DNA of 64,000 nucleotides from an uncultured Candidatus Saccharibacteria bacterium (GTDB lineage: Bacteria > Patescibacteriota > Minisyncoccia > Phycocordibacterales > CAYRGE01). The stretch covers positions 137,949-201,948 of the forward strand of contig CAZTCT010000001.1 of NCBI GenBank assembly GCA_964612415.1. The letters are read 5' to 3'. The notes under the pieces were generated by a model. That model saw only the letters and a list, made by a program, of their open reading frames with translations, did no database searches and was not told the DNA's origin. The stretch's first letter is position 1. Every line of letters begins with the position of its first letter. This document shows, piece after piece, positions 11,896-61,930 of this stretch. Position numbers and translations under genes: made by a program.

Positions 11896-11925
11896 AACGG
11901 CTCAACCAATTGATTGAGCCGTTTT
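11896..11925. terminator. Palindromic terminator element, family copy 1 (aacggctcaaccaattgattgagccgtt)
   Basis: 10-bp stem with A/T-rich flanks, between convergent genes 11031-11885(+) and rpmB(-). Confidence 0.55.
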
Positions 11926-11930
11926 CCTCC

Positions 11931-12134
11931 TTATTTCACGCTTACGAGATGCTTGTTTGCCTTGAGGCAGCGGGTGCAGATTTTCTCGCGATGACCGTCG
12001 GAAAAAGTAGCCCACTGGAGGTTGGGTTGTCTTCGGACATTGCCGGTCGGGTTGAACTTGGTCGCACGGACACGGTTTGAGTAGCGTCCTCCGACTTGGG
12101 TTCCCTTATTACAAATGGGGCATGCTTTTGCCAT
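11931..12134 (-). CDS. rpmB: 50S ribosomal protein L28 (Zn-ribbon type)
   Basis: MAKACPICNKGTQVGGRYSNRVRATKFNPTGNVRRQPNLQ...CTRCLK matches bL28 with two CxxC pairs. The start was set at the internal Met of the longer track ORF. Confidence 0.75.
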   Translation of the reverse strand: MAKACPICNKGTQVGGRYSNRVRATKFNPTGNVRRQPNLQWATFSDGHREKICTRCLKANKHLVSVK

Positions 12135-12186
12135 ATATTTATCGTGTTCGGCTATGTTATCATAAACCCTATATTTCGCAAGACGT

Positions 12187-12810
12187 ATGGATGCTGACAT
12201 CATAAGCGCAATTTTCTTCATAGCGATACTCATTATGTCTGTGGTGATACACGAAGTTTCCCATGGCTACGTTGCCAATATCTTCGGCGACCCTACTGCG
12301 CGCTTGGCGGGGAGACTTACCCTCAATCCTGTTCCTCACATAGATCCACTGGGTTCGTTTATCATCCCTGCGATCCTCTTCTTCTCTACGCACGGGTCTT
12401 TCGTCTTCGGATGGGCGAAGCCAGTGCCGGTAAATCCATACAATATTAAGAAAGGGAGATTGGGCATGGGACTTGTCAGTGCCGCAGGAGTGCTCTCCAA
12501 TCTTCTTGTCGCCATCATCTTTGGGCTCATTGTGAGATTCTCGGAAGCATTGGCACTATCCTCCTCCTTTGTAGAGATTGCGCTCAATATTATGGTCATC
12601 AACCTCGTACTCGCTATCTTCAATCTCATCCCCGTTCCTCCCCTCGATGGGTCCAAGGTCCTCTTTAGCCTCCTTCCTGTGCGCCTTCATTATATAGAGG
12701 AGGCCTTGGAGCGGTACTGGATGTTCCTTATTATAGGGGTACTTTTGCTCGCTCCCTCTATTATTCTTCCTATTTTGCAGTTCATGGTCAGGCTCTTGGT
12801 AGGGGTATAG
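12187..12810 (+). CDS. Site-2 protease family (M50) intramembrane zinc metalloprotease
   Basis: HEVSHG (HExxH) inside a TM helix plus the LNPVPHIDPLGS motif. About 6 TM helices. Divergent from rpmB. Confidence 0.65.
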   Translation: MDADIISAIFFIAILIMSVVIHEVSHGYVANIFGDPTARLAGRLTLNPVPHIDPLGSFIIPAILFFSTHGSFVFGWAKPVPVNPYNIKKGRLGMGLVSAAGVLSNLLVAIIFGLIVRFSEALALSSSFVEIALNIMVINLVLAIFNLIPVPPLDGSKVLFSLLPVRLHYIEEALERYWMFLIIGVLLLAPSIILPILQFMVRLLVGV

Positions 12811-12896
12811 GCAAAGGGGCGGACAGGGCCCTTGCATTTTGTTCTCGGAAATAGTAAGGTATCCATACGCGCCTTGGGCGCTTGTTTTAATAACTT

Positions 12897-13322
12897 ATGG
12901 CGACAATCAACCAACTCTCACGCAAAAGCCGACGAAAGCCAGTCAAGAAGACAAAGACGGCAGCTTTGTCGCGCGGTTTTAATACACTCAAGAACAGACC
13001 GGTGTACTTCTCATCACCGTTCAAGCGTGGGGTATGTACGAAAGTTACGACCACAACGCCCAAGAAACCTAACTCAGCTCTCCGAAAGATCGCCCGTGTC
13101 CGCCTTACCAATGGAACAGAGGTCACCGCTTATATTCCTGGCATGGGACACAATCTCCAAGAACACTCAGTAGTTGTCCTCCGTGGAGGAAAGGTGAAAG
13201 ACCTTCCTGGTGTTCGCTATCAGGTAGTACGCGGTGTGCTTGATGCATCTGGTGTTGATAAGCGAATGAAAGGACGCAGTCGTTATGGTGCTAAACGCCC
13301 TAAAGCCGGTGCTAAGAAATAA
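12897..13322 (+). CDS. rpsL: 30S ribosomal protein S12
   Basis: [10 protein letters not shown]...[10 protein letters not shown]...[30 protein letters not shown] matches uS12. Confidence 0.95.
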
Positions 13323-13327
13323 TTTTT

Positions 13328-13795: not shown

Positions 13796-13887
13796 TGCCT
13801 TGCGAGAGGGAATTGCTTTGGGGTATAGTGGAGGCAACAAAGCCCGTGCGGCTTATTTTTATTTCTATAAATTATATTTAGTACGTT

Positions 13888-16041: not shown

Positions 16042-16066
16042 AGATTTTATTGCTAAAAAAGGGAGA

Positions 16067-16102
16067 AAAAACGGCTCAACCGATCGGTTGAGCCGTTTTT
16101 TG
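16067..16102. terminator. Palindromic terminator element, family copy 2 (aaaaaacggctcaaccgatcggttgagccgtttttt)
   Basis: Perfect 14-bp palindrome with an A-run upstream and a T-run downstream, immediately after fusA. Confidence 0.65.
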
Positions 16103-16178: not shown

Positions 16179-16700
16179 ATGACAGAAAATCAGAGTGCTG
16201 GTGAAGCTGGTGCAATGGCTGGCGCAAATCTCTTGTCGGTACTAACGACGGGGGTTCCGATTGATCCACAGAGTCTGATTGTTCCAGAAGGACTTTCTGC
16301 CAGAGAACAGGAGTTGCTGGGGATATTAATGCCCAGACTCTATCAACCTTACATTCAGGTTGAATATAACAAGGTTGCCGACAAATATCGGTTTACTTTT
16401 TCTGACGAGCCAATAAAAACGGTCGAAGAACAGACTCCGTGCGTGGAGACTCTTCACGACGAAACCGGGAAAATGGTGGCGTTTGAAGTCCGGGGTATTG
16501 GCTCGACTTGCCGCACGGAGTTGCCGAATCTTGTTTTACGGCCCCGAAACATACGTCTGTCTGACGCACTCGCTCTTATGGAAAGGATCCATGGCCCATA
16601 TTTCTTCGAGAACGGAGGCCGCACAGGGGCTGAGGGGAATCGAGCGTGGCTTTTCACACAAGCCGAACAGTACGACATTCATATTGACCTCGACTGGTAA
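16179..16700 (+). CDS. Hypothetical protein (173 aa) inserted between fusA and tuf
   Basis: Clean ORF with an upstream SD-like agaggag. No recognisable motifs. Bracketed by a terminator upstream and a promoter-like TTGACT-N16-TATGAT downstream, at about 16744-16775. Confidence 0.45.
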   Translation: MTENQSAGEAGAMAGANLLSVLTTGVPIDPQSLIVPEGLSAREQELLGILMPRLYQPYIQVEYNKVADKYRFTFSDEPIKTVEEQTPCVETLHDETGKMVAFEVRGIGSTCRTELPNLVLRPRNIRLSDALALMERIHGPYFFENGGRTGAEGNRAWLFTQAEQYDIHIDLDW

Positions 16701-16936
16701 ACATCGCACTCCTTTCGCTCACCCTCGCAGGTGGGCTTTTTTCTTGACTAATATTCGTGTTTTGTTATGATGACCGGTACCGCAGTGCATGCGCCTTTTT
16801 GTTTTGTGGCGGATTATTTCGCCACACTTTGCGCAGTCTAGCGGGGAGAATCAAGGAAGTGAGCGCTCAAGGAGTGTTCTCGCGCATTGAGCGGTCAATT
16901 CCTATAATTATTTGGAATTAATAACAATTATTTACT

Positions 16937-18127: not shown

Positions 18128-18149
18128 CTCACAACTATCTAGAAGCTCT

Positions 18150-18506
18150 ATGACAGCAAAAGAAGCGACAAAGAAGGCAGCAACGAAAGACAAGGATATC
18201 ATCCCGAAGCTTCGCATTCGCGTACGCGCATACGAGAGCAAGGTGCTTGATATGTCTGTCAAACAGATCATTGATACCGCACTTCGCTACGAAGCAGGTA
18301 TTGAAGGTCCTGTGCCGCTTCCTACAGAGATCAAGAAGTACACCGTCAACCGCTCAACATTCGTTCACAAGAACGCGCGAGAACAGTTCGAAATGCGAGT
18401 GCACAAGCGCTTGATTGATATCTTGAATCCAAATGCGAAAGTCGTAGAGGCACTTACCAACATGAGCCTCCCATCCGGAGTGAGCATTGAGGTAAAGATG
18501 CTCTAG
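18150..18506 (+). CDS. rpsJ: 30S ribosomal protein S10
   Basis: LRIRVRAYESKVLD...TEIKKYTVNRSTFVHKNAREQFEMRVHKRLIDI matches uS10. The short basic N-terminal extension is unusual. Confidence 0.9.
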   Translation: MTAKEATKKAATKDKDIIPKLRIRVRAYESKVLDMSVKQIIDTALRYEAGIEGPVPLPTEIKKYTVNRSTFVHKNAREQFEMRVHKRLIDILNPNAKVVEALTNMSLPSGVSIEVKML

Positions 18507-18570: not shown

Positions 18571-19074
18571 ATGCGAAAGCGCGCAAAACAATTAATTCTC
18601 AGGAGAATCGTCGCAAGAATTTATGCGGGGACTACTTTTATTACGAATGTTTATTTAGACCATCATTCACATCCTGATACTGCGTGGATTAGGAATATAT
18701 ACATTCTCTTATCTTTTTATACGGAGCTACTTCTTAAAGCAATCTATATTTACGAGAAAGAATATTCAAAGCGCCAGGATTTGGAAAAGGTACTCATTAC
18801 GCAGGGACATAATCTTGAAAGAATCGGGAAGGAATTAGGACCTGATATATTAAAAAAATACAATATTTACAATATAAAAAAATTTAGAAGACATCAATAT
18901 AAAGTAGTTACAGACGTTGGGACTTTCTATGTTAAGGATTTTGTTGATATTCGATATGATTTTTTAACTCCTCGAGTTCGCAAATTAAAAGGCAATGAGC
19001 ATGAAATGTTTCGAATCCAGATAGCTTTTATTAATCGTATTGTGGCCTTCTTGAATGGCCCAGCTTGGTCCTAA
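18571..19074 (+). CDS. Hypothetical protein (167 aa) in a strongly AT-rich island between rpsJ and rplC; possible horizontally acquired gene
   Basis: Local composition is far more AT-rich than the flanking ribosomal genes and rich in Ile/Tyr/Lys/Asn codons. No recognisable catalytic motif. Confidence 0.45.
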   Translation: MRKRAKQLILRRIVARIYAGTTFITNVYLDHHSHPDTAWIRNIYILLSFYTELLLKAIYIYEKEYSKRQDLEKVLITQGHNLERIGKELGPDILKKYNIYNIKKFRRHQYKVVTDVGTFYVKDFVDIRYDFLTPRVRKLKGNEHEMFRIQIAFINRIVAFLNGPAWS

Positions 19075-19084
19075 GTAAAGCCAC

Positions 19085-19112
19085 TTGCATAATTTCTAGA
19101 CTTCTGTATACT
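19085..19112 (+). promoter_or_regulatory. Sigma70-like promoter TTGCAT-N16-TATACT driving rplC onwards
   Basis: -35 at 19085-19090 and -10 at 19107-19112, about 160 nt upstream of the rplC start. A hairpin at 19127-19146 follows in the leader. Confidence 0.4.
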
Positions 19113-19272
19113 CCTCCCATACAAGAAGTACCTACCCTGGTAGGTACGCCAAGTCCCAGATAGCGGCAGCTTATAGAGGGGACCAATGGCATCTCGCGAA
19201 ATGCGGCATGCTATTGCCGTATTTTTTGTTTCAACAGCTCAACGGGATGCCTCGTTGAGCCGTTCAAAACCC

Positions 19273-28487: not shown

Positions 28488-29099
28488 TTGCGTATGACAG
28501 AAGAAACAAAGAAAATTGAACAAGATACAAAAGGTGGTGCTCAGACGACTGAGAAGCCTACATCTCCTGCGCAAGGATTTGGCGGAAGAGAGCGTGGTCG
28601 TCGTGGCGGACGAGGAGGACGAGGCGGACGAGGAGGCAAAGGGCGGGACAAAGGTGGAGAGCGATACCGTCCAGAGTTTGATCAGAAGATGATCGATATC
28701 CGACGCGTAGCTCGTGTTGTTGCTGGAGGACGCCGCTTTAGCTTCCGGGTTTCTGTGGTTATCGGAAACAGGAAAGGTATGGTAGGCGTTGGTCTTGGCA
28801 AAGCGGGAGACACTTCTCTTGCCATTGATAAAGCTGTTCGCGATGCGCGAAAGAATGCGATCAACATTCAACTTACAAAAGAAATGTCTATCCCTCACAA
28901 GACTGAGGCAAAGTACGCAAGTGCTTCAGTAGAGATACGACCTGCTCCAGGAAAAGGTCTTGTCGCGGGAAGCTCTGTCCGTAGCGTACTTGATCTTGCG
29001 GGGGTAACAAACGTGACCGCAAAGATCCTGACTCGTAGTAAGAACAAGTTGAACAATGCCCGTGTTGCGGTTAAAGCACTCGAGAAGCTTAATGGATAG
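28488..29099 (+). CDS. rpsE: 30S ribosomal protein S5 with Gly/Arg-rich N-terminal extension; no rpmD (L30) follows
   Basis: uS5 core (VARVVAGGRRFSFRVSVVIGN) preceded by (GGR)n repeats. rplO starts 10 nt after its stop. Confidence 0.9.
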   Translation: MRMTEETKKIEQDTKGGAQTTEKPTSPAQGFGGRERGRRGGRGGRGGRGGKGRDKGGERYRPEFDQKMIDIRRVARVVAGGRRFSFRVSVVIGNRKGMVGVGLGKAGDTSLAIDKAVRDARKNAINIQLTKEMSIPHKTEAKYASASVEIRPAPGKGLVAGSSVRSVLDLAGVTNVTAKILTRSKNKLNNARVAVKALEKLNG

Positions 29100-29108
29100 A
29101 TAAAGCCT

Positions 29109-29564
29109 ATGAAAATTCACGATCTCAAAAGACATTCTCCTCTCAGAAAGAAAAAGCTCGTTGGCCGTGGAGGTAAAAGGGGTAAGACTTCTGGAAAGGG
29201 AACGAAAGGACAGAAAGCTCGCGCAGGACGCAAGATGCGCCCGGAATTGCGTGATCTTATCAAAAAGATTCCAAAGCTTCGCGGGTACAAGTTTGCTGGT
29301 GTGGAGAAACAACCCGTAAGTATTGTTAATGTTGCAACTCTGCAGAATGCATTTGCTGACAATGACGCAGTAAATCCGAAGACACTTATTGCGAAAAGGG
29401 CAATTTCTGTACGAAAGGGCACTACGCCAACCGTAAAAATTCTCGGTGACGGGGAACTTTCAAAGAAGCTCTCTGTCTCAGGGTGCCTCGTCTCTTCTTC
29501 TGCTCGTGATAAAATCACAAAGGCAGGAGGCAGTGTTGCGGAAATTGCGAAGGCTGCAAAATAG
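29109..29564 (+). CDS. rplO: 50S ribosomal protein L15
   Basis: GRGGKRGKTSGKGTKGQKARAG matches the uL15 N-terminus. Confidence 0.9.
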   Translation: MKIHDLKRHSPLRKKKLVGRGGKRGKTSGKGTKGQKARAGRKMRPELRDLIKKIPKLRGYKFAGVEKQPVSIVNVATLQNAFADNDAVNPKTLIAKRAISVRKGTTPTVKILGDGELSKKLSVSGCLVSSSARDKITKAGGSVAEIAKAAK

Positions 29565-42583: not shown

Positions 42584-42618
42584 AAAAACGGCTCAACCGA
42601 TCGGTTGAGCCGTTTTTC
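42584..42618. terminator. Palindromic terminator element, family copy 3 (aaaaaacggctcaaccgatcggttgagccgttttt)
   Basis: Identical core to copy 2, between convergent genes 41945-42571(+) and rplT(-). Confidence 0.65.
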
Positions 42619-48782: not shown

Positions 48783-48817
48783 AAAAACGGCTCAACCGAG
48801 CGGTTGAGCCGTTTTTT
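48783..48817. terminator. Palindromic terminator element, family copy 4 (aaaaacggctcaaccgagcggttgagccgtttttt)
   Basis: Same stem as copies 2 and 3 with one central substitution (gatc to gagc), between ftsH(+) and the tRNA(-). Confidence 0.6.
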
Positions 48818-48818: not shown

Positions 48819-48894
48819 TGGTCCGCCTGGCAGGACTCGAACCTACAACCACGGAGATATAAGCTCCGTGCTCTAACCATTGAGCTACAGGCGG
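48819..48894 (-). tRNA. tRNA with anticodon UAU (tRNA-Ile, AUA-reading); CCA encoded
   Basis: Cloverleaf: CCGCCUG-UA-GCUC-AAUGGUUA-GAGC-A-CGGAG-CUUAUAU-CUCCG-UGGUU-GUAGG-UUCGAGU-CCUGC-CAGGCGG-A-CCA. 7/4/5/5-bp stems, U33, A37. Confidence 0.7.
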
Positions 48895-49010
48895 CTTCTG
48901 GCTTGACTATAGTATACAAAAAGTATTGTCCGAGCAATGCATGTTTGTATCCACAGCAAGAAATAAATCTCTCCTATCTAAGAGGGTATAATGTGGGCAT
49001 ATACTTTTTT

Positions 49011-52000
49011 ATGAAGCGCGCGCTTCTTGCTCTGCTTAAAACATTGTTCATTTCTTGCGTTCTTCTTTTTGGAGGTACGCTTGCATTTGCTCAGACTATT
49101 TCTTATACACCGCTTGCTCCTTTGCCTGGAATCAATGATAGTGGTGGGCCAATTACCCTTACCACGTATCTAAGCGGGCTCTTTTATCTTGGACTTGGTA
49201 TTGCAACTATTTTGGCTGTGGTGATGATCGTCTTTGCTGGCGTGCAAATGATCGCAAGCGCAGGCAATGAAGCGTGGCGAAGCGCAGCAAAAGAAAGAAT
49301 TAAAAATGCATTATTTGGCTTGCTCCTTGCTTTGTTTGCATGGCTTATTATTTTTACAGTGAATCCACAAATTCTTGGGGTGCTCTCAACCGGGTTTACG
49401 CTCCAGAGCTCTCCATTTGAGCCGCGTATTCCTGGCACAGGAGGGTGGACTCCAGCAGGTGGGTTCACTCCGCCGCTCGGCACTACACTACCTGGCGGGA
49501 CTGGTTCGGGCGGATCTGGGTTTCCCGTTGGAACATCTGAGCCAAATCCATTTGATATTGACCAGATCATGAGAGATATTGAGAGTGGCAAGCTTGTTCG
49601 AGATCAAATAGAAATTGACCCATCAAGTGACGGGTCGCTTATCCGAACTTGTGCTCAAAAAGAACAAAATGATGGCGAGTGTGCAGCTGCGGATGTGAAT
49701 GGCGATGGGGCTGTGACCATTCTTGACTACAGTTTTCTTATTGATACAACAACAAGATTTGATCTCAATATGGACGGTGTCATTGACCCGTATCCATATA
49801 GACCAATTGAGAGCATGTGCTACATACACGATGGCAGGTACAATCTTTTGGGCATAAATAGTGCTGGAGAGCCGACGACAATCATTGGGATTGATTCAAC
49901 TCCTACACGCACCACGGGGTTCGTATTTGGATTTAATAAGTATGATCCATTTGTAGTCACTGTAGGGGACACTCAATATGAGATACCAAGTAGTGATTAT
50001 CAATATAACTATACACCACGTAATCTTTGGTGGGATTATTTAAGAGCAGATACAGAGCCACGACTTATACAACCACCACTATCAGCGGACGAAATATTCA
50101 ACTTAACTGGCTCTGGTTTGCCACCGGGGCCGCCAGCATTCCCGGGAGACAATCTTCCTCCTCCGCCACCACCTATCCCCAATATTGGCGACGGCGCTCT
50201 TCCACCACCACCACCCGACTTTCCACCAGGTGGGGCGAGTTCTTCTTCGGGGACAGGGAGTACTGGCACCACAGGATCCGTGCCTTCAGGGAGTATCCCA
50301 GTAGTATCTCCTGGGGGTATAACTAGTTTGCCGCTTGTCTCAGAGACGTACTCTCAGAATCAATGTTTTGCAAGTTCGTACGGGACTCGTGTTGGGTTTA
50401 CCATAGCGGAAATTGACATGCTCACAAAAGTTCTCCAGAGCTCTACTGGCGGGGTTCCTGCAACGACAAATTATTATCTCGATCTTAATAAATTGAGTGC
50501 TAATGTTGGGGGATGTTTTGTAAATGGTGCAACATTTGAATTCCTTGGCGGGGATTTCCCTGACAGCTTTAATTTTGGTAGTGGCACCCTTCCTCGGTGG
50601 ATGCATCCTGTGTACTCACATTATTTGTTTAATAATGACTTTTGGCCAAACCCGGACAATTTTTCATTCGGACAATTCTTCTCATTATTTAATAATGACA
50701 GAATCTATGCTTTAGCGGGGTGTAATGTGCAAAGATTCCTCCCGAGCTCCAGTAATCCTGGGCCATTCAGTGCCTATGATCCGATTACCTATACAGAATT
50801 CATGGATAGACCACAGTACATGACAGATACAACCGCACCTCTGCAAATCTTCGGGGCGGCACTTTACGCGACGCTCGTGCAGGCTGACCTCAATCATGAT
50901 GGACGTGTCAATCTTGCAAGCATCGGAGCTCCAACAGGAGATGCTACGCCAGAAGAAATTTCAGCGTGTCTTTCACAAGACCCGGAGAATTTATCAGCAG
51001 AGTGCCAGTCATTAGATATTACCTACGAAGATTTTAGTGGTGACAATGATGATCTTGCGATACTCAACCGCTGTATCACGCAGGATACTGCCACAGGTCC
51101 AGTGGGGGATTGTGTTCAAGCAGACTTCAACCAAGATGGGCATGTTACGACGGCAGACCATAACGGACTTTCTGCGTTGCTCGGCCTTGTGGGGCTAACT
51201 GAGGATCTGCGCACGGAAGGTCTAAGCAGAGCTCCTAATGGAGTAGTCCCTGTTCAAGACTTTGATATCTTACTTTGGACTCCCGACACAACCTATTCTG
51301 ACGCTGACATTCTCAATTTCTGTCTTGGGAAGAAAAAGTGGGGAGGGTGTGAGACGTCCGATCTTGATGGAGATGGACGTATTGATGCAAATGCTCCACC
51401 CCAGGCAACGCGGACCGATGCAGCAATCAACTTCAATTGGGGGTCAGGGAGTCCTATGTCTGGCATTGGGAATGATTGGTTTATTGCCCGATGGACAGCA
51501 GATGTAGATCTTCCAGCTGGAGATTACCGCTTCACGGTGACTGTTGATGACGGGGTTCGTGTGTATGTAGACGACAGACTCATTATTGATAAGTGGAAGA
51601 ACCAAAACTCTCCTACATATACAGCAGATATGACTTTAGCTGCCGATACGCACAATATTCGCGTTGAATATTATGAAGCACGCAATGCGGCGCTTATACA
51701 ATTTGACTTTGGTCTTGTGGGAGGCTCTCCAGTCTCTGTCCCCGGAGGATATGCTGCAGAATTTTGGAACATGGCAAGTAATGCCCGCGGAGCGTCACCT
51801 GCTATTCCTACGGGTGATCAACTTTTGATGAATGATATCAAGAAGTATGACATCAATGGCGACGGGATCATCTCCTTTGAAGGCAATCTTGTTCACCTCA
51901 CCGCACTCTCAACTACTATTGAGGTGGGTGGTAGAGTGCGTTTGGATTGGGATACTTCACGTGTTACGGATTGTGTTGCATCAAGTGAGCCTGCTGGGCT

Positions 52001-52931
52001 CTGGTCTGGGCCAAAGGCACTCAATGATAGTGAGATCAGTCCAATTTTAAATCAAAAAACAGCGTTCACTCTTACATGTACTAATGAACGTACAGGCTTA
52101 CCGATGTCTAATACTGTTAAAGTAGACGCTGTAGATACCACACCAATTGAGTTTAATCCAGATAACATCACTATTTCAGTATCTCCTTCATCAGTCTCTG
52201 CAGGAGATAGTGCGCGTATTTCTTGGAATGCCATTGGGGCCACAAGCTGTACCGCATCAGGAGGATGGAATCCCGTCATCAACACCTTTGGCACATATCC
52301 AGCAGATAATGTCCAAACAACCCAAACATTTGTCATCACTTGCGAACGAGATGGCGTGTCGGGAACTGCAAGCACTACGCTTGAGGTGGTACCAAGGGTT
52401 CCTGTCACATTGCTCGCTGCTCCAAGCGATGTTGCAATGAATGGATCAGCAAAAATTTCATGGGTTGCTTCAAATGTGCGACAAGGAAGAGATGGTGTGT
52501 GCACTGCTTCAGGGGATTGGAGTGGCTCTTATCGCGCCTCTGGAGAAGTTACAGTGAATAATCTAACTGCGACGAGCACGTTCTTTATGACTTGTGGGGG
52601 AGAGACTGCATCTGTTGTCGTCACCGTGAGACCATCTGTTTCTGGTGGAGGGTTTATTCCGGAAGCTATCGTTCTCTCTGCTACGCCTCCGCAAATCAAT
52701 CCAGGGTCTGTTGTTTTCCTCACATGGAGCGCACCTGGTGCAACCAATTGTATAGCAAGTCATCCGGTAGGGAGCCCTACTGTTCCCGGGTGGACTGGAC
52801 TCAAGGAGAGTGGAGGATTTGAACAATATACACTCCCTGCTTCAATTATTTCTGATACCATTGAATTTGCTCTTTCCTGTACGGATGGGACAAATAGTGG
52901 CTCAAAAACAGCAAGCATTGTCGTAAACTAG
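49011..52931 (+). CDS. Giant secreted/surface protein (1306 aa): signal peptide, VirB2/TrbC-pilin-like double-TM N-terminal domain, Pro-rich linker, dockerin/EF-hand-like Ca-binding repeats, PA14 domain, C-terminal Ig-like domains
   Basis: Start set at MKRALLALL... (signal peptide). The upstream part of the track ORF overlaps the tRNA. Hydrophobic pair LFYLGLGIATILAVVMIVFAGV / LFGLLLALFAWLIIFTV. Repeats DVNGDGAVTILD, DLNHDGRVNL, DFNQDGHVT and DLDGDGRID. PA14-like NFNWGSGSPMSG...FIARWTADVDLPAGDYRFTVTVDDGVRVYVDDRLIIDKW...HNIRVEYYE. Confidence 0.6.
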   Translation: MKRALLALLKTLFISCVLLFGGTLAFAQTISYTPLAPLPGINDSGGPITLTTYLSGLFYLGLGIATILAVVMIVFAGVQMIASAGNEAWRSAAKERIKNALFGLLLALFAWLIIFTVNPQILGVLSTGFTLQSSPFEPRIPGTGGWTPAGGFTPPLGTTLPGGTGSGGSGFPVGTSEPNPFDIDQIMRDIESGKLVRDQIEIDPSSDGSLIRTCAQKEQNDGECAAADVNGDGAVTILDYSFLIDTTTRFDLNMDGVIDPYPYRPIESMCYIHDGRYNLLGINSAGEPTTIIGIDSTPTRTTGFVFGFNKYDPFVVTVGDTQYEIPSSDYQYNYTPRNLWWDYLRADTEPRLIQPPLSADEIFNLTGSGLPPGPPAFPGDNLPPPPPPIPNIGDGALPPPPPDFPPGGASSSSGTGSTGTTGSVPSGSIPVVSPGGITSLPLVSETYSQNQCFASSYGTRVGFTIAEIDMLTKVLQSSTGGVPATTNYYLDLNKLSANVGGCFVNGATFEFLGGDFPDSFNFGSGTLPRWMHPVYSHYLFNNDFWPNPDNFSFGQFFSLFNNDRIYALAGCNVQRFLPSSSNPGPFSAYDPITYTEFMDRPQYMTDTTAPLQIFGAALYATLVQADLNHDGRVNLASIGAPTGDATPEEISACLSQDPENLSAECQSLDITYEDFSGDNDDLAILNRCITQDTATGPVGDCVQADFNQDGHVTTADHNGLSALLGLVGLTEDLRTEGLSRAPNGVVPVQDFDILLWTPDTTYSDADILNFCLGKKKWGGCETSDLDGDGRIDANAPPQATRTDAAINFNWGSGSPMSGIGNDWFIARWTADVDLPAGDYRFTVTVDDGVRVYVDDRLIIDKWKNQNSPTYTADMTLAADTHNIRVEYYEARNAALIQFDFGLVGGSPVSVPGGYAAEFWNMASNARGASPAIPTGDQLLMNDIKKYDINGDGIISFEGNLVHLTALSTTIEVGGRVRLDWDTSRVTDCVASSEPAGLWSGPKALNDSEISPILNQKTAFTLTCTNERTGLPMSNTVKVDAVDTTPIEFNPDNITISVSPSSVSAGDSARISWNAIGATSCTASGGWNPVINTFGTYPADNVQTTQTFVITCERDGVSGTASTTLEVVPRVPVTLLAAPSDVAMNGSAKISWVASNVRQGRDGVCTASGDWSGSYRASGEVTVNNLTATSTFFMTCGGETASVVVTVRPSVSGGGFIPEAIVLSATPPQINPGSVVFLTWSAPGATNCIASHPVGSPTVPGWTGLKESGGFEQYTLPASIISDTIEFALSCTDGTNSGSKTASIVVN

Positions 52932-53017
52932 TCTTTAAGAGGGGTATAAACACAAAGAGTTTTGAAAGAGAGGGAATGACGATATAATGGACTCATTAAC
53001 AATGAGTCCATTATTTA

Positions 53018-56000
53018 TTGTGTATGATGCGTAAATTCCTTCCGATTTTTGCTTTGACCTTAGTTGCTTCCGCTAGTTTTTTGCTCTCTCCTTCATTAAG
53101 TCGCGCGCAAACGACACTCTCTGAGGAGGAGCAGCTCGCGCAAATGGCCTCATTGCTGCAAGCGCTGCAGTCTGTGGTCAATACACTAAGCGCTGCGTCA
53201 GGGCAGAGTGCGCAGGGTGTTCCGCCACCGCCACCTCCGCCACCATCACCTGCAGGTGATGGATACTTTGGGGAATATTGGAGCACTCCTTCTGCGGGAG
53301 CGTCACCTGCGATACCAACAACTGCGCCAACCGCCACTCGTCTTGATACAAGCATTAACTTCTCTTGGGGGTCGGGGTCTCCTATGTCGAGTATCCCCTC
53401 CGATCACTTTATTGTTCGTTGGACAAAACAGCAGGATTTTTCGGGAGGGGACTATCTATTTAGTGTAAATGCCGATGATGGCGTGCGTTTGTATATAGAT
53501 GACCAGCTCGTTATTAATCAATGGATCAACCAATCCGCAACAACATATACCGCCGGGCGAACGCTTGCTGCAGGGACTCATACATTGCGAATTGAATATT
53601 ACGAAGCAGCTGGCTCTGCGACGATGCAGTTTAGCTTTACTCAAACAGCTGTTGCTCCTCCGGTTACCCCAGCCCCCACCGTCACCCTCACCGCAAACCC
53701 AACTTCAATCACACAAGGACAATCATCCACCCTCACCTGGAGCTCAACCAATGCCACAAGCTGTACCGCATCAGGCGGATGGACAGGCACCAAGACAACG
53801 TCAGGTACTCAAGCAGTCTCACCAACCGCAAACACTACCTACACCCTCACTTGTACAGGAGCAGGTGGAAGTGCAAACCAGAGTGTGACGGTGGGGGTGA
53901 GTGCAAACCCTGCACCAACGGTTACCTTTACCGCAAACCCAACTAGTACGACCGCTTCTCAGGGCGCAACTCTTTCGTGGAGCTCAACCAATGCCACAAG
54001 CTGTACCGCATCAGGCGGATTTTTGTGGACAGGAAGTCGCGCATTGTCTGGCTCTCAATTTATTACCCCTGAATCAACCACTACCTTCACTCTTGCATGT
54101 ACTGGGGCAGGTGGAACTACCACAAAAACGGCCACCGTTACGGTTGTCTCTTCTGGAACTACAAGTGGTCAGCTTTCTGGGAGCGCAAGCGTAAAGGCTT
54201 CGTCGCAGAACACCGATCTTTCGTCAGAAGGCACTACTGATTGGGTTCATTGGGGTTTATCAATCCCAACAAGTGTGAATCGAAAGTCTGGAGTGACGGG
54301 GCAGATTGGTTCTATGACGACCATTGGTGCAGCCTCTCTCAAGCGCTACGCTGACGATCGTGCGAAAGTATCTTGGGTCGGCGGTACGCCTACTGCAAGT
54401 ACAGGGAGTACTCCTGCCGGAGTGTACATAAAAGTAAATGGAAGTGGTTACACATTCACTGTTCCTGCAGATACGACAACACGCACACTAAAAATTTATC
54501 TTGGTGCGTGGAATGCGCAAGGTCTATTCCAAGCTTTTCTCAATGACAACAGTGCGAGTCCATACTCGGTGATTGTTGATGCTGGGTCAACGGGGACAGC
54601 AACAGATCGTGTCATTACGCTCACATATAAAGCTGCGTCAGCAGGGCAATCCCTGACAGTGCGCTACACACTTTTTGATGATTATGGGCTTGACGGGAAC
54701 ATCACTTTACAAGCAGCTACGCTTCAAGGTGTTTCTTCCACCCCAGCCCCCACCGTCACCCTCACCACAAACCCAACTTCAATCACACAAGGACAATCAT
54801 CCACCCTCACCTGGAGCTCAACCAATGCCACAAGCTGTACCGCATCAGGCGGATGGACAGGCACCAAGACAACGTCAGGTACTCAAGCAGTCTCACCAAC
54901 CGCAAACACTACCTACACCCTCACTTGTACAGGAGCAGGTGGAAGTGCAAACCAGAGTGTGACGGTGGGGGTGAGTGCCGCAACGGCCTACAATCTTGTT
55001 TACAGTACATCAGCGAGCCGCTCAAACCCCGCCGCTCTTAATGGCGCGGTAGTTTCGGGAGGTATCTATGTATTCTTGACCCCAGAGACGAACATAACTG
55101 GGGATGTGCTCTTTTATATAGATAACGTTTCTGGCAGTGGTACTGCGTATAAGACAGAATCAAACGCTCCGTATGATCTTGCGGGTACAAACACAAGTAA
55201 TGGAAGTGCGGCGCCGTACAACACAGCACAACTTTCTAATGGAACTCATACTGTTACCGTGCGACTTAACACGAATACGGTACTTACCTCAACGTTTACT
55301 GTGGCGAACAGCTCTTCCACCCCAGCCCCCACCGTCACCCTCACCACAAACCCAACTTCAATCACACAAGGACAATCATCCACCCTCACCTGGAGCTCAA
55401 CCAATGCCACAAGCTGTACCGCATCAGGCGGATGGACAGGCACCAAGACAACGTCAGGTACTCAAGCAGTCTCACCAACCGCAAACACTACCTACACCCT
55501 CACTTGTACAGGAGCAGGTGGAAGTGCAAACCAGAGTGTGACGGTGGGGATAGAGCTCGGGTATTTTGGAGAGTATTGGGATGTACCAACGGCGGGAGCC
55601 TCTCCTTCAATCCCAAGCACTGCACCAACATTTACGCGCATTGACCCAGCAATTGATTTTGATTGGACTACGAATGCACCAGGTACCTCGGTCGCCGCTG
55701 ACCACTTCATTGTACGCTGGACACGAAATGTTGATTTTGTCGCGGGAACATATCGCTTTACTGCATCAAGCGATGATGGGGTGCGCGTGTACGTTGACAA
55801 TCAACTACTTATAAATGACTGGACTAATCATGGCGTACGCACCTATGTGAATGACCTGACCCTTTCTGCGGGCAGTCATGCATTGCGCATTGAGTATTAT
55901 GAAAATACAGGCAGTGCGGTCGCGCAATTTAGCTTCGCACCAGTAACCTCTACCGGGAGTGTTGATACACAAGCTCCAACAGTAGTTATGACCTCTCCAT

Positions 56001-58306
56001 CATCAGGGGCTACTGTATCTGGTACGGTCGGTATCAGTGCTAGTGCCGCGGATGATGTGGGAGTAGTCGGAGTACAGTTCAAATTAGATGGAGCAAATCT
56101 TGGACCCGAAGATACAAGTGCTCCGTACGCCATGTCTTGGGACACCACAAGCGCGGCGAGTGGGGCACATACCATTAATGCAGTTGCACGAGATGCAGCG
56201 GGGAACAATAGGACATCTACCGGCGTATCTGTCACAGTAAATAATCTCACCGCACCACCGCCACCGCCAGCACCAGCACCCTCTTTTGACTCGCAGGCGC
56301 CGACAATTTCAGGAATAACTACCTCCAGTATTACTACAAGTGGAGCAGTTATCTCATGGACCACAAACGAAGCAACTACGCAGCAAGTAGACTATGGGCT
56401 TTCGGCATCATATGGGGCACAAACAAGTACACAAACGAGCCTTTCTACAAGTCACAGTGTTACATTAAGCAATCTCTCGCCAAACACTACGTATCACTTT
56501 CGAGTTCGCTCTGCTGACGCGGCGGGGAACGTGAGTGTCTCTCTTGATCAAACACTTACTACTGCATCCTTGGCAGATACGCAAGGTCCAAACGCAATCA
56601 CCAATGTTTCCGTTTCTGATATTCGTTCAAATTCAGCAACGGTGACATGGACTGTTCCCTCGGACATTCCTTCCGGTGCTCCTGCTTCATATGACTTGCG
56701 CTATAGCACCACGCTCATAACGCTAAGCAACTTCTCATCACGCACACAAGTGGCTGGTGAGCCAACTCCAACGAGTGCGGGTGCAACGCAAACATATACC
56801 CTTGCTGGGCTATCTCCCAGTACGCTCTACTATGTGGCTATTGTGTCAAAAGATGCTGCGGGGAATACATCATCTATATCAAATGTGATGACGTTTACCA
56901 CTGTCGCTGAAACAACCACTACCACAACCAGCACAAACAGTGGCACGAATACCTCTACCTCTTCTGGGACAAATAGTGGCACCTCGTCTAGTGGCGGAGG
57001 TGGTGGAGGAGGTGTTGTACAAACAATTGCTTCACCAAGAAACTTTATTGCGAGAGGGGCATCAAACCAGATTCTACTCTCATGGAGCAATCCACAAGAC
57101 ACTGAATTTATTCGTGTAAAAATAGTGCGAAAAGCAAACAGTGTTCCATCTTCATCATCCGACGGTACTACTGTGTATGAGGGAACAAACCAGACTTTCA
57201 CTGACACTAATCTTTCAAGAGACATCCTCTATTATTATGCTGCGTATAGTATTGATCGATCACTCCGTACTTCATCCGCTGTGTACGCCCAAGCGCGGCT
57301 AGGGCAACTCTCCGACGCAGAGGCAACGCAATCTCTTACGACCACTTCAGGAGGCGTCCCCACTGCACCCACAGCTCCTTCTGCGCCACAAATAAACACA
57401 GGCACAGTACCAACGGGAGTGTTTACCATAGGCTTGCAGGTGGGCTCTCGAGACATTCAAGTAAAACAACTCCAGCAACTTCTCAACTCTCTCGGCTTCA
57501 CGGTCGCTGAAAATGGCGCAGGTTCATCTGGTAATGAAACCGAGTTCTTCGGCCCAGCAACGGCGAATGCTGTCGCGCGATTCCAAGCTGAAAATATCCC
57601 TGAAGTTTCTCCGACGGACCGTGGTCTTGTCGGGCCAGTCACAAGAGTAAAACTTAACTCACTCGCATCAAGTGCTGGACTTGTGTCAACTACAGCTTCT
57701 TCTGTTTCAAATACCACCTCAACACAAGTACCCGCAGTATCTAGTGGGGCAGTACGTTTTACGCGGAACCTAAAAGTAGGCGATAGAGGAAGTGATGTGA
57801 AAGATTTGCAACAAGCGCTCAACTCTCTCGGCTTTACGGTCGCGTCTAGTGGCGCGGGGTCCTCAGGTAATGAAACCGAGTTCTTCGGTCCAGCGACGGC
57901 GGACGCGGTAGCACGTTTCCAAGAAGAATATAAGCAGGAAGTGCTTGCTCCGTACAATCTTGCTCGCGGGACTGGATTTTTTGGAGCATCAACTCGAACA
58001 AAGCTCAATACTCTTGTGGGGGGAGAAGGGAGTGGGGCAGGAGATACCGCAGCACTCATTGCGCTTCTCCAGGCACAACTTCTTGCGCTTCAAGCACAAC
58101 TTGCAGCTATTCTTTCAGGGCAAACAACTCAAGTAACTGTGCCATCTATTTCAACCCCAATTCCTACCACACCAAGTGCACCAACGACTTCACCTGACAA
58201 CAGTGCGCAAACATCAACTGATACATCGGGAGATACTACAGGGAGTACCTCTTCGGATTCTGGCGTACCACCGCCACCTCCGCCTCCACCGCCTCCTGCG
58301 TTTTAA
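53018..58306 (+). CDS. Giant cell-surface protein (1762 aa): signal peptide, two PA14 domains, at least four near-identical Ig-like (Big) repeats, two FN3 domains, two peptidoglycan-binding (PG_binding_1) repeats, poly-Pro C-terminus
   Basis: Signal peptide MRKFLPIFALTLVASASFLL. PA14-like blocks at about 53273-53648 and 55551-55935 (HFIVRWT...DDGVRVYVDNQLLINDW...LRIEYYE). Repeated PAPTVTLT(A/T)NPTSITQGQSSTLTWSSTNATSCTASGGWTG...YTLTCTGAGGSANQSVTVG. FN3-like ISWTTNEATTQQVDYG...YHFRVRSADAAGN. PGBD-like DIQVKQLQQLLNSLGFTVAENG...FFGPATANAVARFQ (twice). Confidence 0.65.
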   Translation: MCMMRKFLPIFALTLVASASFLLSPSLSRAQTTLSEEEQLAQMASLLQALQSVVNTLSAASGQSAQGVPPPPPPPPSPAGDGYFGEYWSTPSAGASPAIPTTAPTATRLDTSINFSWGSGSPMSSIPSDHFIVRWTKQQDFSGGDYLFSVNADDGVRLYIDDQLVINQWINQSATTYTAGRTLAAGTHTLRIEYYEAAGSATMQFSFTQTAVAPPVTPAPTVTLTANPTSITQGQSSTLTWSSTNATSCTASGGWTGTKTTSGTQAVSPTANTTYTLTCTGAGGSANQSVTVGVSANPAPTVTFTANPTSTTASQGATLSWSSTNATSCTASGGFLWTGSRALSGSQFITPESTTTFTLACTGAGGTTTKTATVTVVSSGTTSGQLSGSASVKASSQNTDLSSEGTTDWVHWGLSIPTSVNRKSGVTGQIGSMTTIGAASLKRYADDRAKVSWVGGTPTASTGSTPAGVYIKVNGSGYTFTVPADTTTRTLKIYLGAWNAQGLFQAFLNDNSASPYSVIVDAGSTGTATDRVITLTYKAASAGQSLTVRYTLFDDYGLDGNITLQAATLQGVSSTPAPTVTLTTNPTSITQGQSSTLTWSSTNATSCTASGGWTGTKTTSGTQAVSPTANTTYTLTCTGAGGSANQSVTVGVSAATAYNLVYSTSASRSNPAALNGAVVSGGIYVFLTPETNITGDVLFYIDNVSGSGTAYKTESNAPYDLAGTNTSNGSAAPYNTAQLSNGTHTVTVRLNTNTVLTSTFTVANSSSTPAPTVTLTTNPTSITQGQSSTLTWSSTNATSCTASGGWTGTKTTSGTQAVSPTANTTYTLTCTGAGGSANQSVTVGIELGYFGEYWDVPTAGASPSIPSTAPTFTRIDPAIDFDWTTNAPGTSVAADHFIVRWTRNVDFVAGTYRFTASSDDGVRVYVDNQLLINDWTNHGVRTYVNDLTLSAGSHALRIEYYENTGSAVAQFSFAPVTSTGSVDTQAPTVVMTSPSSGATVSGTVGISASAADDVGVVGVQFKLDGANLGPEDTSAPYAMSWDTTSAASGAHTINAVARDAAGNNRTSTGVSVTVNNLTAPPPPPAPAPSFDSQAPTISGITTSSITTSGAVISWTTNEATTQQVDYGLSASYGAQTSTQTSLSTSHSVTLSNLSPNTTYHFRVRSADAAGNVSVSLDQTLTTASLADTQGPNAITNVSVSDIRSNSATVTWTVPSDIPSGAPASYDLRYSTTLITLSNFSSRTQVAGEPTPTSAGATQTYTLAGLSPSTLYYVAIVSKDAAGNTSSISNVMTFTTVAETTTTTTSTNSGTNTSTSSGTNSGTSSSGGGGGGGVVQTIASPRNFIARGASNQILLSWSNPQDTEFIRVKIVRKANSVPSSSSDGTTVYEGTNQTFTDTNLSRDILYYYAAYSIDRSLRTSSAVYAQARLGQLSDAEATQSLTTTSGGVPTAPTAPSAPQINTGTVPTGVFTIGLQVGSRDIQVKQLQQLLNSLGFTVAENGAGSSGNETEFFGPATANAVARFQAENIPEVSPTDRGLVGPVTRVKLNSLASSAGLVSTTASSVSNTTSTQVPAVSSGAVRFTRNLKVGDRGSDVKDLQQALNSLGFTVASSGAGSSGNETEFFGPATADAVARFQEEYKQEVLAPYNLARGTGFFGASTRTKLNTLVGGEGSGAGDTAALIALLQAQLLALQAQLAAILSGQTTQVTVPSISTPIPTTPSAPTTSPDNSAQTSTDTSGDTTGSTSSDSGVPPPPPPPPPPAF
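53670..53904 (+). repeat. Intragenic direct repeat copy 1 (approximately 230 bp, Ig-like domain unit)
   Basis: Near-identical at nucleotide level to 54744-54978 and 55321-55549. It differs by one or two bases, e.g. accgcaaac versus accacaaac. Confidence 0.8.
54744..54978 (+). repeat. Intragenic direct repeat copy 2
   Basis: Same approximately 230-bp unit. It also creates spurious alternative-frame ORFs in the track (54675-54962). Confidence 0.8.
55321..55549 (+). repeat. Intragenic direct repeat copy 3
   Basis: Same unit. It ends at the junction with the second PA14 domain. Confidence 0.8.
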
Positions 58307-60523: not shown

Positions 60524-60623
60524 TGTATGACAATTGTATCATTTCTCTTGGTCTCAAGATGACGTGGTATACTTGGCGGCAGGTTTTGTTCCTCTTCAAC
60601 TAAATAAAAGTGAGGTAATCGCC

Positions 60624-61718
60624 ATGGAAACAATTGTATACGGCCTCTGGGGTCTTGCCTGGTGGCAGAAAATCCTTTTTGTCCTTGTGGCAACTCATAT
60701 TACGATCGCTTCGGTGACCATTTATCTGCATCGCGCGCAAGCACACCTTGCGCTGAGTCTGCATCCTGCGATCGCACATTTCTTCCGCTTTTGGCTCTGG
60801 CTTACTACTGGTATGCAAACGAAAGAATGGGTTGCAGTACATCGCAAGCATCATAGTACCGTTGAGACAGAGGCTGATCCGCATAGTCCCCAAGTGTTTG
60901 GCATCTGGAAAGTCCTTTTTGAAGGAAGTGAATTGTATACGCAGGCCCGGGCAGACAAGGAAATGGTTGAGCGATGGGGCAAAGGAGCTCCTGACGACTG
61001 GATTGAGCGGCACATCTACTCAATGCGGTGGCTTGGGATTTTCTCTTTGCTTATCGTCGACATTATTCTGTTTGGGATTTCAGGGATATCCGCATGGGGT
61101 GTTCAGATGCTCTGGATTCCATTTTTCGCGGCAGGTGTCATCAACGGCGGTGCGCACTATTTCGGGTATCGTAATTACGAAACAGATGACTCGTCAACAA
61201 ACCTCGTGCCGTGGGGGATATTGATCGGAGGCGAAGAGTTGCACAACAATCATCACCGTTTTCCTGTCTCAGCACGCTTTTCTGTGAAGAAAGGGGAGTT
61301 TGATGTAGGTTGGCTTTACATTCGTTTACTGGAGATATGTAAGCTTGCGCGGGTGAGCGCAGAAAAACTTGCTCCGCATTGGAATGAGCATGACCCAAGA
61401 TGGATGCTCAATCGATACAGACAGCAAGTACTGCTTCCTGTTGCCAAAGAAACTTTCTCCAAAGAGATGTATCGCCGATTCAAACGACTTGCCATGTATC
61501 AATCATGGAGTGCTTCGCATCGCGAGGAGCTCTCAGTGCTCCTCCGGCAGAACGATACTTTGGCTCGTATCTGGTACATGAGAGAAAGACTGGCCGCTTC
61601 TCTCCAGGAAAAAGGCGACTCAATTATTGCGTGGCGCAAAACTGCGCAAGAAAGTAGCATCAGACTACTGCAAGAGTTTGCCAAACGTTTCCAATCCTTA
61701 CCTCACAACGCCCAGTAG
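60624..61718 (+). CDS. Membrane fatty-acid (acyl-CoA/acyl-lipid) delta-9 desaturase with approximately 120-aa C-terminal extension
   Basis: Three histidine boxes in canonical order: HRAQAH, VHRKHHSTVETEADPHSP (HRxHH...DPH) and HNNHHRFP. Four predicted TM helices. Start set at METIVYG with an upstream GTGAGG SD. Confidence 0.75.
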   Translation: METIVYGLWGLAWWQKILFVLVATHITIASVTIYLHRAQAHLALSLHPAIAHFFRFWLWLTTGMQTKEWVAVHRKHHSTVETEADPHSPQVFGIWKVLFEGSELYTQARADKEMVERWGKGAPDDWIERHIYSMRWLGIFSLLIVDIILFGISGISAWGVQMLWIPFFAAGVINGGAHYFGYRNYETDDSSTNLVPWGILIGGEELHNNHHRFPVSARFSVKKGEFDVGWLYIRLLEICKLARVSAEKLAPHWNEHDPRWMLNRYRQQVLLPVAKETFSKEMYRRFKRLAMYQSWSASHREELSVLLRQNDTLARIWYMRERLAASLQEKGDSIIAWRKTAQESSIRLLQEFAKRFQSLPHNAQ

Positions 61719-61834
61719 GGCAATCCCGTTGCGGCTATATAAGTGCCGCACGACCCCGTAGAGACCCTCCTTAAGATATGACTCTTTCTGCGGGGTCTTT
61801 TTTGTATATGAATTTTAAATGTATGAGAGGGAGT

Positions 61835-61871
61835 TTAAAGCGGGTCAACCGATCGGTTGACCCGCTTTAAG
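61835..61871. terminator. Palindromic terminator element, family copy 5 (outer-stem variant: aaagcgggtcaaccgatcggttgacccgcttt)
   Basis: Conserved central tcaaccgatcggttga. The outer stem is replaced by compensatory gcggg/cccgc. Confidence 0.5.
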
Positions 61872-61895
61872 AAAAAAGGCTTAACAGAGGCAAAA

Positions 61896-61930
61896 TAAAC
61901 GGCTCAAGCGTACGCTTGAGCCGTTTATTT
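61896..61930. terminator. Palindromic terminator element, family copy 6 (inner variant: aaacggctcaagcgtacgcttgagccgttt)
   Basis: Conserved outer aacggctcaa/ttgagccgtt stem with the central tetramer changed to gcgtacgc. It is tandem to copy 5, between the desaturase(+) and tRNA-Ser(-). Confidence 0.55.

Follow-up and report, generated by a model that had tools for sequence, protein, structure and literature searches.

The 64-kb window (the whole stretch of DNA that was analysed, 64,000 nt of contig CAZTCT010000001.1) contains a family of short palindromic elements, all of them extragenic, at a density of about one copy per 9 kb (7 in 64 kb). The family core is AACGGCTCAAC...GTTGAGCCGTT. The original prediction had listed six palindromes, and all six are present where it placed them. 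A relaxed scan, which allowed up to 4 mismatches over 20 core positions and a spacer of 0–16, added a seventh at 19229–19268; the predicted family was thus real in all its members and one copy short. The pattern AACGGCTCAA-N8-TTGAGCCGTT is matched exactly by five copies and gave 0 matches in 100 dinucleotide-preserving shuffles of the window, and the 7 copies of the relaxed scan compare with 0–1 matches in each of 30 shuffles. An inverted-repeat scan ranked the six listed copies among the longest perfect hairpins of the window, and 4 of them have no bases between the arms, which makes them palindromic through the centre.

The first six copies were annotated without a strand. Copy 1 (11895..11925, AAACGGCTCAACCAATTGATTGAGCCGTTTT) lies between a gene for a metallo-β-lactamase (MBL)-fold protein (+, stop 11885) and rpmB, encoding L28 (−, stop 11931); its departures from the consensus are one asymmetric base and a symmetric change of G-C to A-T, and its RNA folds at −15.3 (+) and −19.9 (−) kcal/mol. 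Copy 2 (16066..16101) is a perfect 36-nt palindrome, A6-CGGCTCAACCGATCGGTTGAGCCG-T6, that lies 25 nt past the fusA stop codon and precedes an open reading frame (ORF) of 173 amino acids with no assigned function, followed by tuf; the folds are −25.4 (+) and −24.8 (−) kcal/mol (z −6.3 and −8.9). Copy 3 (42584..42617), a perfect 34-nt palindrome folding at −24.0 (+) and −28.4 (−) kcal/mol, separates a SLOG/LOG-like gene (+, stop 42571) from rplT, encoding L20 (−, stop 42635), and shares 34 identical bases with copy 2 (AAAAACGGCTCAACCGATCGGTTGAGCCGTTTTT). Copy 4 (48783..48817) has the loop CCGAGCGG, one base off a palindrome, and the consensus base stands in place of the odd one in a 95%-identical relative, L114 (CCGATCGG). 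It lies 17 nt past the ftsH stop codon and 2 nt from the 3′ end of the tRNA-Ile gene (anticodon UAU; 48819..48894, −), and folds at −27.3 (+) and −25.9 (−) kcal/mol.

Copies 5 and 6 form a tandem pair. Copy 5 (61835..61870, variant TTAAAGCGGGTCAACCGATCGGTTGACCCGCTTTAA) lies downstream of a fatty-acid desaturase gene; its core variant AAGCGGGTCAACCGATCGGTTGACCCGCTT carries two compensatory double substitutions, A-T to G-C and C-G to G-C, and it folds at −28.4 (+) and −28.0 (−) kcal/mol. Copy 6 (61893..61930, AAATAAACGGCTCAAGCGTACGCTTGAGCCGTTTATTT) is 4 nt from the 3′ end of the tRNA-Ser gene (GCU; 61934..62022, −), differs from the consensus in an inner stem pair (C-G to G-C) and at the centre (AT to TA), and folds at −28.9 (+) and −28.3 (−) kcal/mol. 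The remaining copy, copy 7 (19229..19268, +, tttcAACAGCTCAACGGGATGCCTCGTTGAGCCGTTcaaa), ends 5 nt before the rplC ATG at 19273. It is of the type that is common in other Patescibacteria, with CG after the core, T before and A after the element and no U-tract. A terminator-like hairpin followed by a U-run (19198..19225, +) stands directly upstream of it in the rplC leader, is possibly an attenuator, and folds jointly with copy 7 at −33.5 kcal/mol.

Six of the seven copies sit 8–29 nt past a stop codon or 2–4 nt past a tRNA 3′ end. The prediction that every copy lies at the 3′ end of a gene therefore holds for those six and fails for copy 7. It had also counted four of the six listed copies between convergent genes; when tRNA genes are included the number is five (copies 1, 3, 4, 5 and 6), in four gaps, with copies 5 and 6 together in the gap between the desaturase and tRNA-Ser genes. 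On each strand, the folding energies of the six 3′ copies range from −15 to −29 kcal/mol and their z from −6 to −9. Copies 2–4 have tails of T5–T6 on both strands, and those of copies 1 and 6 are interrupted (TTTT and TTTATTT). About 10 unrelated hairpins flanked by an A-run and a T-run also occur in the window, which indicates that the organism uses canonical intrinsic terminators, and the family makes up roughly one third of the strong hairpins of the intrinsic-terminator type. The copies fit the proposed anatomy of bidirectional terminators: strong hairpins on both strands, A/T-run flanks in most of them, and positions after stop codons or tRNA 3′ ends. The six copies in 3′ gaps are probably bidirectional intrinsic terminators, and copies 1–4 and 6 would stop transcription both ways, including that of the abutting tRNA-Ile and tRNA-Ser genes.

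The six copies resemble other bidirectional intrinsic terminators in their GC-rich hairpin, which in most of them is preceded by an A-tract and followed by a U-tract so that either strand reads as a terminator, and in standing right after stop codons or tRNA 3′ ends. Ordinary terminators, however, have unrelated stems, whereas here one 34-nt sequence recurs and is perfectly palindromic through the loop; also unlike ordinary terminators, the family is mostly without U-tracts in other genomes.

The variants bear on what maintains the elements. The original prediction had read them as evidence of selection on structure, and pairing is indeed kept in the stem variants. Selection on structure does not account for the whole pattern, however, since symmetric changes are also found at unpairable positions of the loop: positions 3 and 6 are changed together in copy 1 (G-C to A-T), and the central dinucleotide is changed from AT to TA in copy 6. 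Because these symmetric double changes hit positions unable to pair in any hairpin, we infer a process at the level of DNA that maintains the dyad symmetry of the copies, also within the loop. Template switching inside hairpins could produce symmetric double changes.

The best named relatives of the window FtsH are 72–75% identical and carry the names Candidatus Yonathbacteria, Parcubacteria, Paceibacterota, Minisyncoccia. In the ribosomal protein cluster (28488–29564) the S5 gene is followed after 9 nt by that for L15, and the L30 gene is absent; a missing L30 is a typical trait in the candidate phyla radiation (CPR). Judged by its genes, the window genome is a member of the Parcubacteria (Patescibacteria). 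Three relatives (L134, L135 and L136) keep the gene order of the window, with NDK, RNase J and SLOG genes facing L20-L35-IF3, then SmpB facing FtsH, then RecG, and in L135 and L136 the order goes on with ComF facing PilM. No family copy was found in the 22 kb of each of these three loci. At the orthologous gap between the SLOG gene and rplT all three have a bidirectional terminator, but its stem is unrelated to that of the family (AAAAACTCCCGCGCACGCGGGAGTTTTT in L134, AAAAGCGGCCGCCCCTTTGGGGCGGCCGCTTTT in L135 and L136). A bidirectional terminator thus appears to be the conserved function at that gap, which supports the terminator role, and the shared stem is not ancestral there. It would have been gained in the window lineage and have spread to several sites, as opposed to arising by independent convergence. 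In this respect the prediction of a repeat, as opposed to independently evolved terminators, was upheld by the identical copies and by the unrelated stems at the orthologous gap.

The core also occurs far outside the window lineage. We scanned one genome per species (~186,000 genomes) with the pattern AACGGCTCAA-N4-12-TTGAGCCGTT and obtained at least 113 loci. Among the 113 matches listed, to which the following counts by taxon refer, 69 were from Patescibacteria (Saccharibacteria and many Parcubacteria lineages), 5 were labelled only ‘bacterium’ and 39 were from other phyla. Directly past the searched core, C is found in 61/73 Patescibacteria matches and 12/39 from other phyla (p 5e-8), and the next two bases are CG in 41/73 and 3/39, respectively (p 2e-7). 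An A/T run on at least one side was seen in 12/72 Patescibacteria matches compared with 26/38 from other phyla (p 1e-7). Those from other phyla have the look of terminators that match by chance. Such chance matches are plausible because, given a hairpin, only one arm must match, and we estimate that the collection holds ~1e8 terminators. Among the matches listed, at least two copies came from each of 14 Patescibacteria assemblies and from one with the bare label ‘bacterium’, and two or more never came from an assembly labelled as something other than Patescibacteria. About 10 further diverged copies, some with compensatory changes, were confined to Patescibacteria loci among the loci listed.

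Intergenic position was the rule, with 70/78 copies between genes (five window copies included). By crude ORF calls, ~11 copies lie between convergent, 27 between tandem and 10 between divergent ORFs, which is the random intergenic expectation. The stem often extends past the core with variable, complementary sequence, Watson-Crick pairs being present at 62%, 53% and 51% of the first three outer positions, and half-site spacing ranges from 4 to 19 nt. Loop length is specific to the genome: 38/47 same-genome pairs share it, compared with 9.6 expected by permutation. One Saccharibacteria locus (L108) has four copies in 8 kb. A metagenome scan for the window's CC-N4-GG subtype gave 14 hits, none with the GATC centre of the window copies, and one metagenome sample (Ga0209211) holds four contigs with an identical CCGTACGG subtype. 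These patterns argue that the repeat multiplies or is homogenised within each genome while its core stays fixed across classes. Among the window copies, copy 7 is of the general Patescibacteria type and the other six carry added A/T runs.

Two further observations concern hairpin repeats in these loci. Some genomes have a longer hairpin because the arm is expanded into 8-mers in tandem, (AACGGCTC)n ... (GAGCCGTT)n (L031 3063–3100, L109 2516–2553, L033 44–90). A second Patescibacteria hairpin repeat, ATAACATCCTTA-N-TAAGGATGTTAT, absent from the window, is present five times between small ORFs in L013 (3103–6602) and again in L139 (5377, 6421, 7322) and L140 (5443). The 5′ end of the winged-helix gene described next is present in L013 as three partial copies, and the layout of this locus resembles a cassette array.

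When the ORFs of all fetched loci were clustered, one family was found to adjoin the element. Its members are proteins of 95–125 amino acids. They start with a hydrophobic stretch, read by us as a predicted transmembrane helix, and a charged linker joins this to a winged helix-turn-helix whose recognition helix is nearly invariant, GISDATATRY(L/F)(D/E)ELEKEGKVRQVG. An AlphaFold2 model had a mean pLDDT (predicted local distance difference test) of 82.6 and showed a generic fold, MarR/ArsR/eS25/Z-alpha-like; the structure does not indicate a ligand. The family has 1,441 representatives at 50% identity (E ≤ 1e-10), and its named members are all from Patescibacteria. The link was tested on six homologs that had been picked by protein, independently of the element, and whose surrounding DNA was then fetched. 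In five of the six, a palindrome starts 4–105 nt past the stop codon (105 nt in L137, 67 in L138, 4 in L139, 5 in L140 and 10 in L141; binomial p ~1e-8 with a generous base rate). The L137 copy falls in the N-terminal low-complexity part of a tandem paralog, and the spacer between the arms in L141 is 19 nt. The exception, L142, has a frameshifted or truncated wing and a rearranged 3′ side. The same adjacency was seen in the element-ascertained loci L004, L013, L042 and L108, and in L009 and L036 a copy lies ~125–140 nt downstream of the winged-helix gene.

Upstream of the winged-helix gene and co-oriented with it, restriction-modification and other defence genes are present in five of the six homolog loci. 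Apart from this family, the recurrent neighbours of the element were only generic ones (MreB, ABC ATPases, response regulators). Viral contigs contained no relative of the winged-helix protein and only 3 matches to the element pattern, which indicates that the system is not phage-borne. The tight adjacency suggests that the winged-helix protein recognises the element core. Given the variable spacing and the complementary flanks, the target would more likely be a hairpin, either of RNA or of extruded DNA, or the duplex of a single half-site than linear DNA bound by a fixed dimer.

The defence clusters themselves are variable: upstream of position 5001 in L138–L142 the winged-helix gene stands at their 3′ edge, and they include genes for N6_N4 methylases, ResIII and Mrr as well as reverse transcriptase, NgoFVII, Vsr, OLD-type, Tsp45I, AlwI and Ymh proteins. 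Three family members of 580–820 amino acids (P0246, P0247 and P0305) have 8–11 tandem winged-helix domains.

As a whole, the reading that we favour, and hold to be reasonably probable, is that of a Patescibacteria palindromic repeat that has been adapted to termination in this genome and is putatively read by the winged-helix protein. The elements would be copies of a palindromic hairpin repeat widespread in Parcubacteria and Saccharibacteria. Transcribed in either direction, the six window copies would form a hairpin of 13–17 bp followed by a U-tract, and this would end transcription of the convergent genes or tRNA genes on either side. The shared stem would have spread within the lineage by copying, through mobilisation or through gene conversion between hairpins, and a process acting on DNA would keep the copies dyad-symmetric, the loop included. 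The core would have stayed constant across distant lineages through putative recognition, as DNA or as an RNA hairpin, by a CPR-specific, membrane-anchored winged-helix protein. The safest part of this is a lineage-amplified palindromic repeat whose copies would serve as bidirectional terminators, of the REP-like (repetitive extragenic palindromic) or terminator-repeat kind. Less certain and more interesting is the reading in which protein and palindrome are a pair conserved throughout Patescibacteria. In its full form, AACGGCTCAACG...CGTTGAGCCGTT and the SDATATRY winged-helix transmembrane protein would be a hitherto unrecognised cognate pair across Parcubacteria and Saccharibacteria, the protein binding ~100 hairpin sites per genome, and lineages such as that of the window would have gained U-tracts that turned the sites into self-sufficient bidirectional terminators; we put this forward as a tentative proposal that is rather more doubtful than not. 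If it is true, the pair may serve in the termination or insulation of transcription, defence-cluster ends being one example, or else in tethering DNA or RNA to the membrane.

Several observations weigh against the favoured reading. The taxon proportions are those of a sample, with groups assigned by record labels. Among the matches listed, A/T runs on both sides occur in 0/72 from Patescibacteria compared with 13/38 from other phyla, and the reverse arrangement, T before and A after, in 25/72 compared with 1/38 (p 9e-5). By crude ORF calls, roughly one fifth of the Patescibacteria copies lie between divergent ORFs, in several cases with one neighbour confirmed by Pfam, and the L012 copy has a tRNA-Glu gene on one side and a Pfam-verified ABC ATPase gene on the other and is 5′ of each. 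Given these flanks and the divergent siting of part of the copies, termination cannot be the general role of the family. Within the window, the tail of copy 5 is weak, TTTAA (UUUAA) on both strands, and a separate terminator-like site (61780–61797) already follows the desaturase gene before copy 5; copy 7 is in the 5′ leader of rplC and has no U-tract. With respect to the protein, the half-site spacing of 4–19 nt does not fit a fixed dimer on double-stranded DNA. Moreover, no winged-helix homolog is encoded in the 64-kb window or in L134, L135 or L136, so that the link of the protein to the element in the window genome is an extrapolation.

An unlikely alternative is that the elements are protein sites, on double-stranded DNA or as hairpins, for the winged-helix protein or another factor, that their main role is not termination and that the A/T runs are incidental. 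Such sites could be operators of a regulon, could act at the ends of islands as an insulator or roadblock, or could tether DNA to the membrane. The tight linkage of gene and element would fit, as would the dyad symmetry kept even in loop positions of copies 1 and 6, the location of copy 7 and many Patescibacteria copies 5′ of genes, and the position of the winged-helix gene at the 3′ edge of restriction-modification and defence clusters. However, half-site spacing runs from 4 to 19 nt, half-sites alone are not enriched, and a hairpin is suggested by the complementarity of the variable flanks and of the inner bases; in addition, 6/7 window copies have tails of the terminator type in 3′ gaps. 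The arrangement is like that of ParB-parS and of Noc with its binding sites (NBS), in which a palindromic site comes after the gene of the DNA-binding protein, further sites are spread across the chromosome and, for Noc, the protein is membrane-associated. It is unlike ParB in that a winged-helix protein of 95–125 amino acids with a transmembrane helix would putatively bind hairpin sites of variable spacing.

Somewhat less probable again, and in our view doubtful, is that the elements are REP sequences or REP doublets (REPINs) mobilised by a RAYT (REP-associated tyrosine transposase, of the Y1 HUH type) encoded elsewhere in the genome, with terminator activity as a by-product. As in the REP, BIME (bacterial interspersed mosaic element) and REPIN-RAYT systems of Enterobacteria and Pseudomonas, the palindromes are short, extragenic and multi-copy, and fall into genome-specific subfamilies; those systems are often in 3′ untranslated regions and can affect termination or mRNA stability. 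Copies were gained in some lineages and are absent from relatives, and the window holds a tandem pair at 61835–61930. That pair had been likened to a BIME; perfect palindromes have no orientation, and the pair therefore speaks neither for nor against this likeness. There is no conserved GT[AG]G head, the copies starting with A-runs or AACGG, and the palindromes are perfect where those of REP are imperfect. Pfam scans of ~40 window ORFs gave no Y1_Tnp (PF01797), and thus no RAYT among them. The lone Y1_Tnp near a copy (in L140) is an IS200-like insertion in another gene and is not flanked by the element, and no transposase or integrase recurs beside the 73 Patescibacteria copies. A REP family is as a rule confined to one species or genus, whereas this core is common to several classes of the superphylum, and the linked gene is one for a membrane-anchored winged-helix protein, not for a transposase. 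Of the prediction that the elements are REP- or MITE-like (miniature inverted-repeat transposable element), a real repeat family therefore remains, without the GTAG head, without a Y1 transposase in ~40 ORFs and without features of a MITE. MITEs have terminal inverted repeats around internal sequence, with target-site duplications, and are usually 50–500 bp long; the element is 30–36 nt, consists of the hairpin only and shows no target-site duplications, flanking direct repeats or internal sequence, and we rejected this identity.

We consider it very unlikely that the elements are attC-like or other recombination sites bounding inserted gene cassettes. The words GCTCAAC...GTTGAGC fit the attC core consensus, RYYYAAC...GTTRRRY, and, as in integrons, they stand in a hairpin-forming sequence at gene 3′ ends and in variable regions. 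Several neighbours of the window copies are missing from relatives or from the usual order of the operon: the 173-amino-acid ORF between fusA and tuf, an ORF of 167 amino acids between rpsJ and rplC, the desaturase gene and a 9.4-kb block of giant genes. The winged-helix gene and its element close variable defence clusters, and in L060 a gene for a XerC/D-like recombinase is 65 nt from the element. The motif, however, lies beside the loop at the top of a hairpin of 24–36 nt, not at the base of a 57–141-nt attC fold; there is no L box and there are no extrahelical bases, and no IntI was found in the window and none recurs in the fetched loci. No recombinase recurs near the copies, and in a compact genome every gap is a gene junction.

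Independently evolved intrinsic terminators, alike only through the constraints on stems, are an explanation to which we give very little credence. A 10-nt stem can recur by chance over ~186,000 genomes, and the ~39 matches from other phyla among those listed look ordinary, with A/T-run flanks and random loops. On the other side stand the 34 bases shared by copies 2 and 3, the seven copies in 64 kb where none were expected, the different stems at orthologous gaps in relatives, and the multi-copy occurrence of the same core in many Patescibacteria with extra conserved bases past the searched pattern. We judged this explanation to be refuted, since the copies are identical to this degree and syntenic relatives lack them.

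A typical density of uptake sequences is about one per kb, mostly as single copies. That the elements are DNA uptake sequences in inverted pairs, as in the terminators of Neisseria (DUS, DNA uptake sequence) and Haemophilus (USS, uptake signal sequence), is scarcely credible: the likeness lies in a fixed word of 10–12 nt present as an inverted repeat downstream of genes and in the competence genes of the window (ComEC, a ComF-like protein and PilM), whereas the half-site is essentially confined to the palindromes (the 8-mer is within them in 5/5 cases on one strand, with 4 unpaired extras compared with ~1 expected on the other) and the density, about one copy per 9 kb and none inside genes, is ~10-fold lower. 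Saccharibacteria are naturally competent (PMC10633639), and the paper reporting this (PMC10633639) mentions no uptake sequence or palindrome.

Further identities were sought for the element. Rfam 15 gave no match at the elements, in the window at gathering score or in four Patescibacteria loci at E ≤ 1; the permissive hits were only spurious matches of miRNA hairpins to long stems. A restriction site as the origin of the CGATCG centre was discarded, as GATC and CGATCG occur at the expected frequency, and a resemblance to a 16S rRNA helix (GGCTCAACC) was judged coincidental, since in the rRNA the word forms the loop and not an arm. In the library of papers searched, none describing the element or such a repeat in Patescibacteria was found by sequence or by topic, and the core repeat is apparently undescribed so far.

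Patescibacteria, with genomes of ~1 Mb, account for much of the diversity of bacteria; to our knowledge, almost nothing is known about the control of gene expression or the organisation of the genome in this group. A 24-nt palindrome that is kept across classes, is multi-copy per genome and is tied to one small protein offers a testable handle. Should the elements be only lineage-specific shared terminator stems, the interest would be modest. They are candidate compact bidirectional terminators for genetic tools in Patescibacteria, and Saccharibacteria can now be genetically manipulated (PMC10633639). Perfect palindromes of 34–36 nt also break k-mer assemblies and may fragment metagenome-assembled genomes. 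Logan contigs of the close relatives L114, L115 and L133 begin or stop inside the palindromes (window positions 42591, 48807 and ~61900), because perfect palindromes exceed the assembly k-mer.

Some features of the gaps that hold copies 2 and 7 were recorded in addition. The fusA-tuf gap contains, after copy 2, the 173-amino-acid ORF (16179–16700, no Pfam hit), a terminator-like hairpin (16717–16736) and a promoter-like site (16744–16771). The rpsJ gene (18150–18506) and rplC (start 19273) are ~770 nt apart, and the 167-amino-acid ORF, of unknown function, occupies 18571–19074. The stretch from 19075 to 19272 looks like a leader or attenuator of the L3 operon; copy 7 abuts the rplC start codon, and no obvious Shine-Dalgarno sequence is present there.

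Elsewhere in the window, two giant ORFs (~1,375 and 1,762 amino acids; 48900–58306) contain PA14, T4SS-pilin-like (type IV secretion system), Big_7, fn3 and PG_binding_1 domains, and a 22-nt repeat, CCTGTACAAGTGAGGGTGTAGG, is present three times within the second. This 9.4-kb block is absent between ftsH and recG in L134, L135 and L136. Between 32317 and 39386, a VirD4/TraG-like ATPase of 920 amino acids is followed by an ORF of 1,423 amino acids without any Pfam hit. The tRNA-Ile(UAU) gene adjoins ftsH in the window, in a Taylorbacteria locus (L011, 2601–2675) and in a Yonathbacteria locus (L135, ~11955–12030), and decoding of AUA by a UAU tRNA thus seems to be conserved in the group. Finally, three tetranucleotides are depleted in the window relative to expectation, TCGA (98 observed, 263 expected), GGCC (102 and 190) and AATT (258 and 418), which may reflect avoidance of restriction sites.

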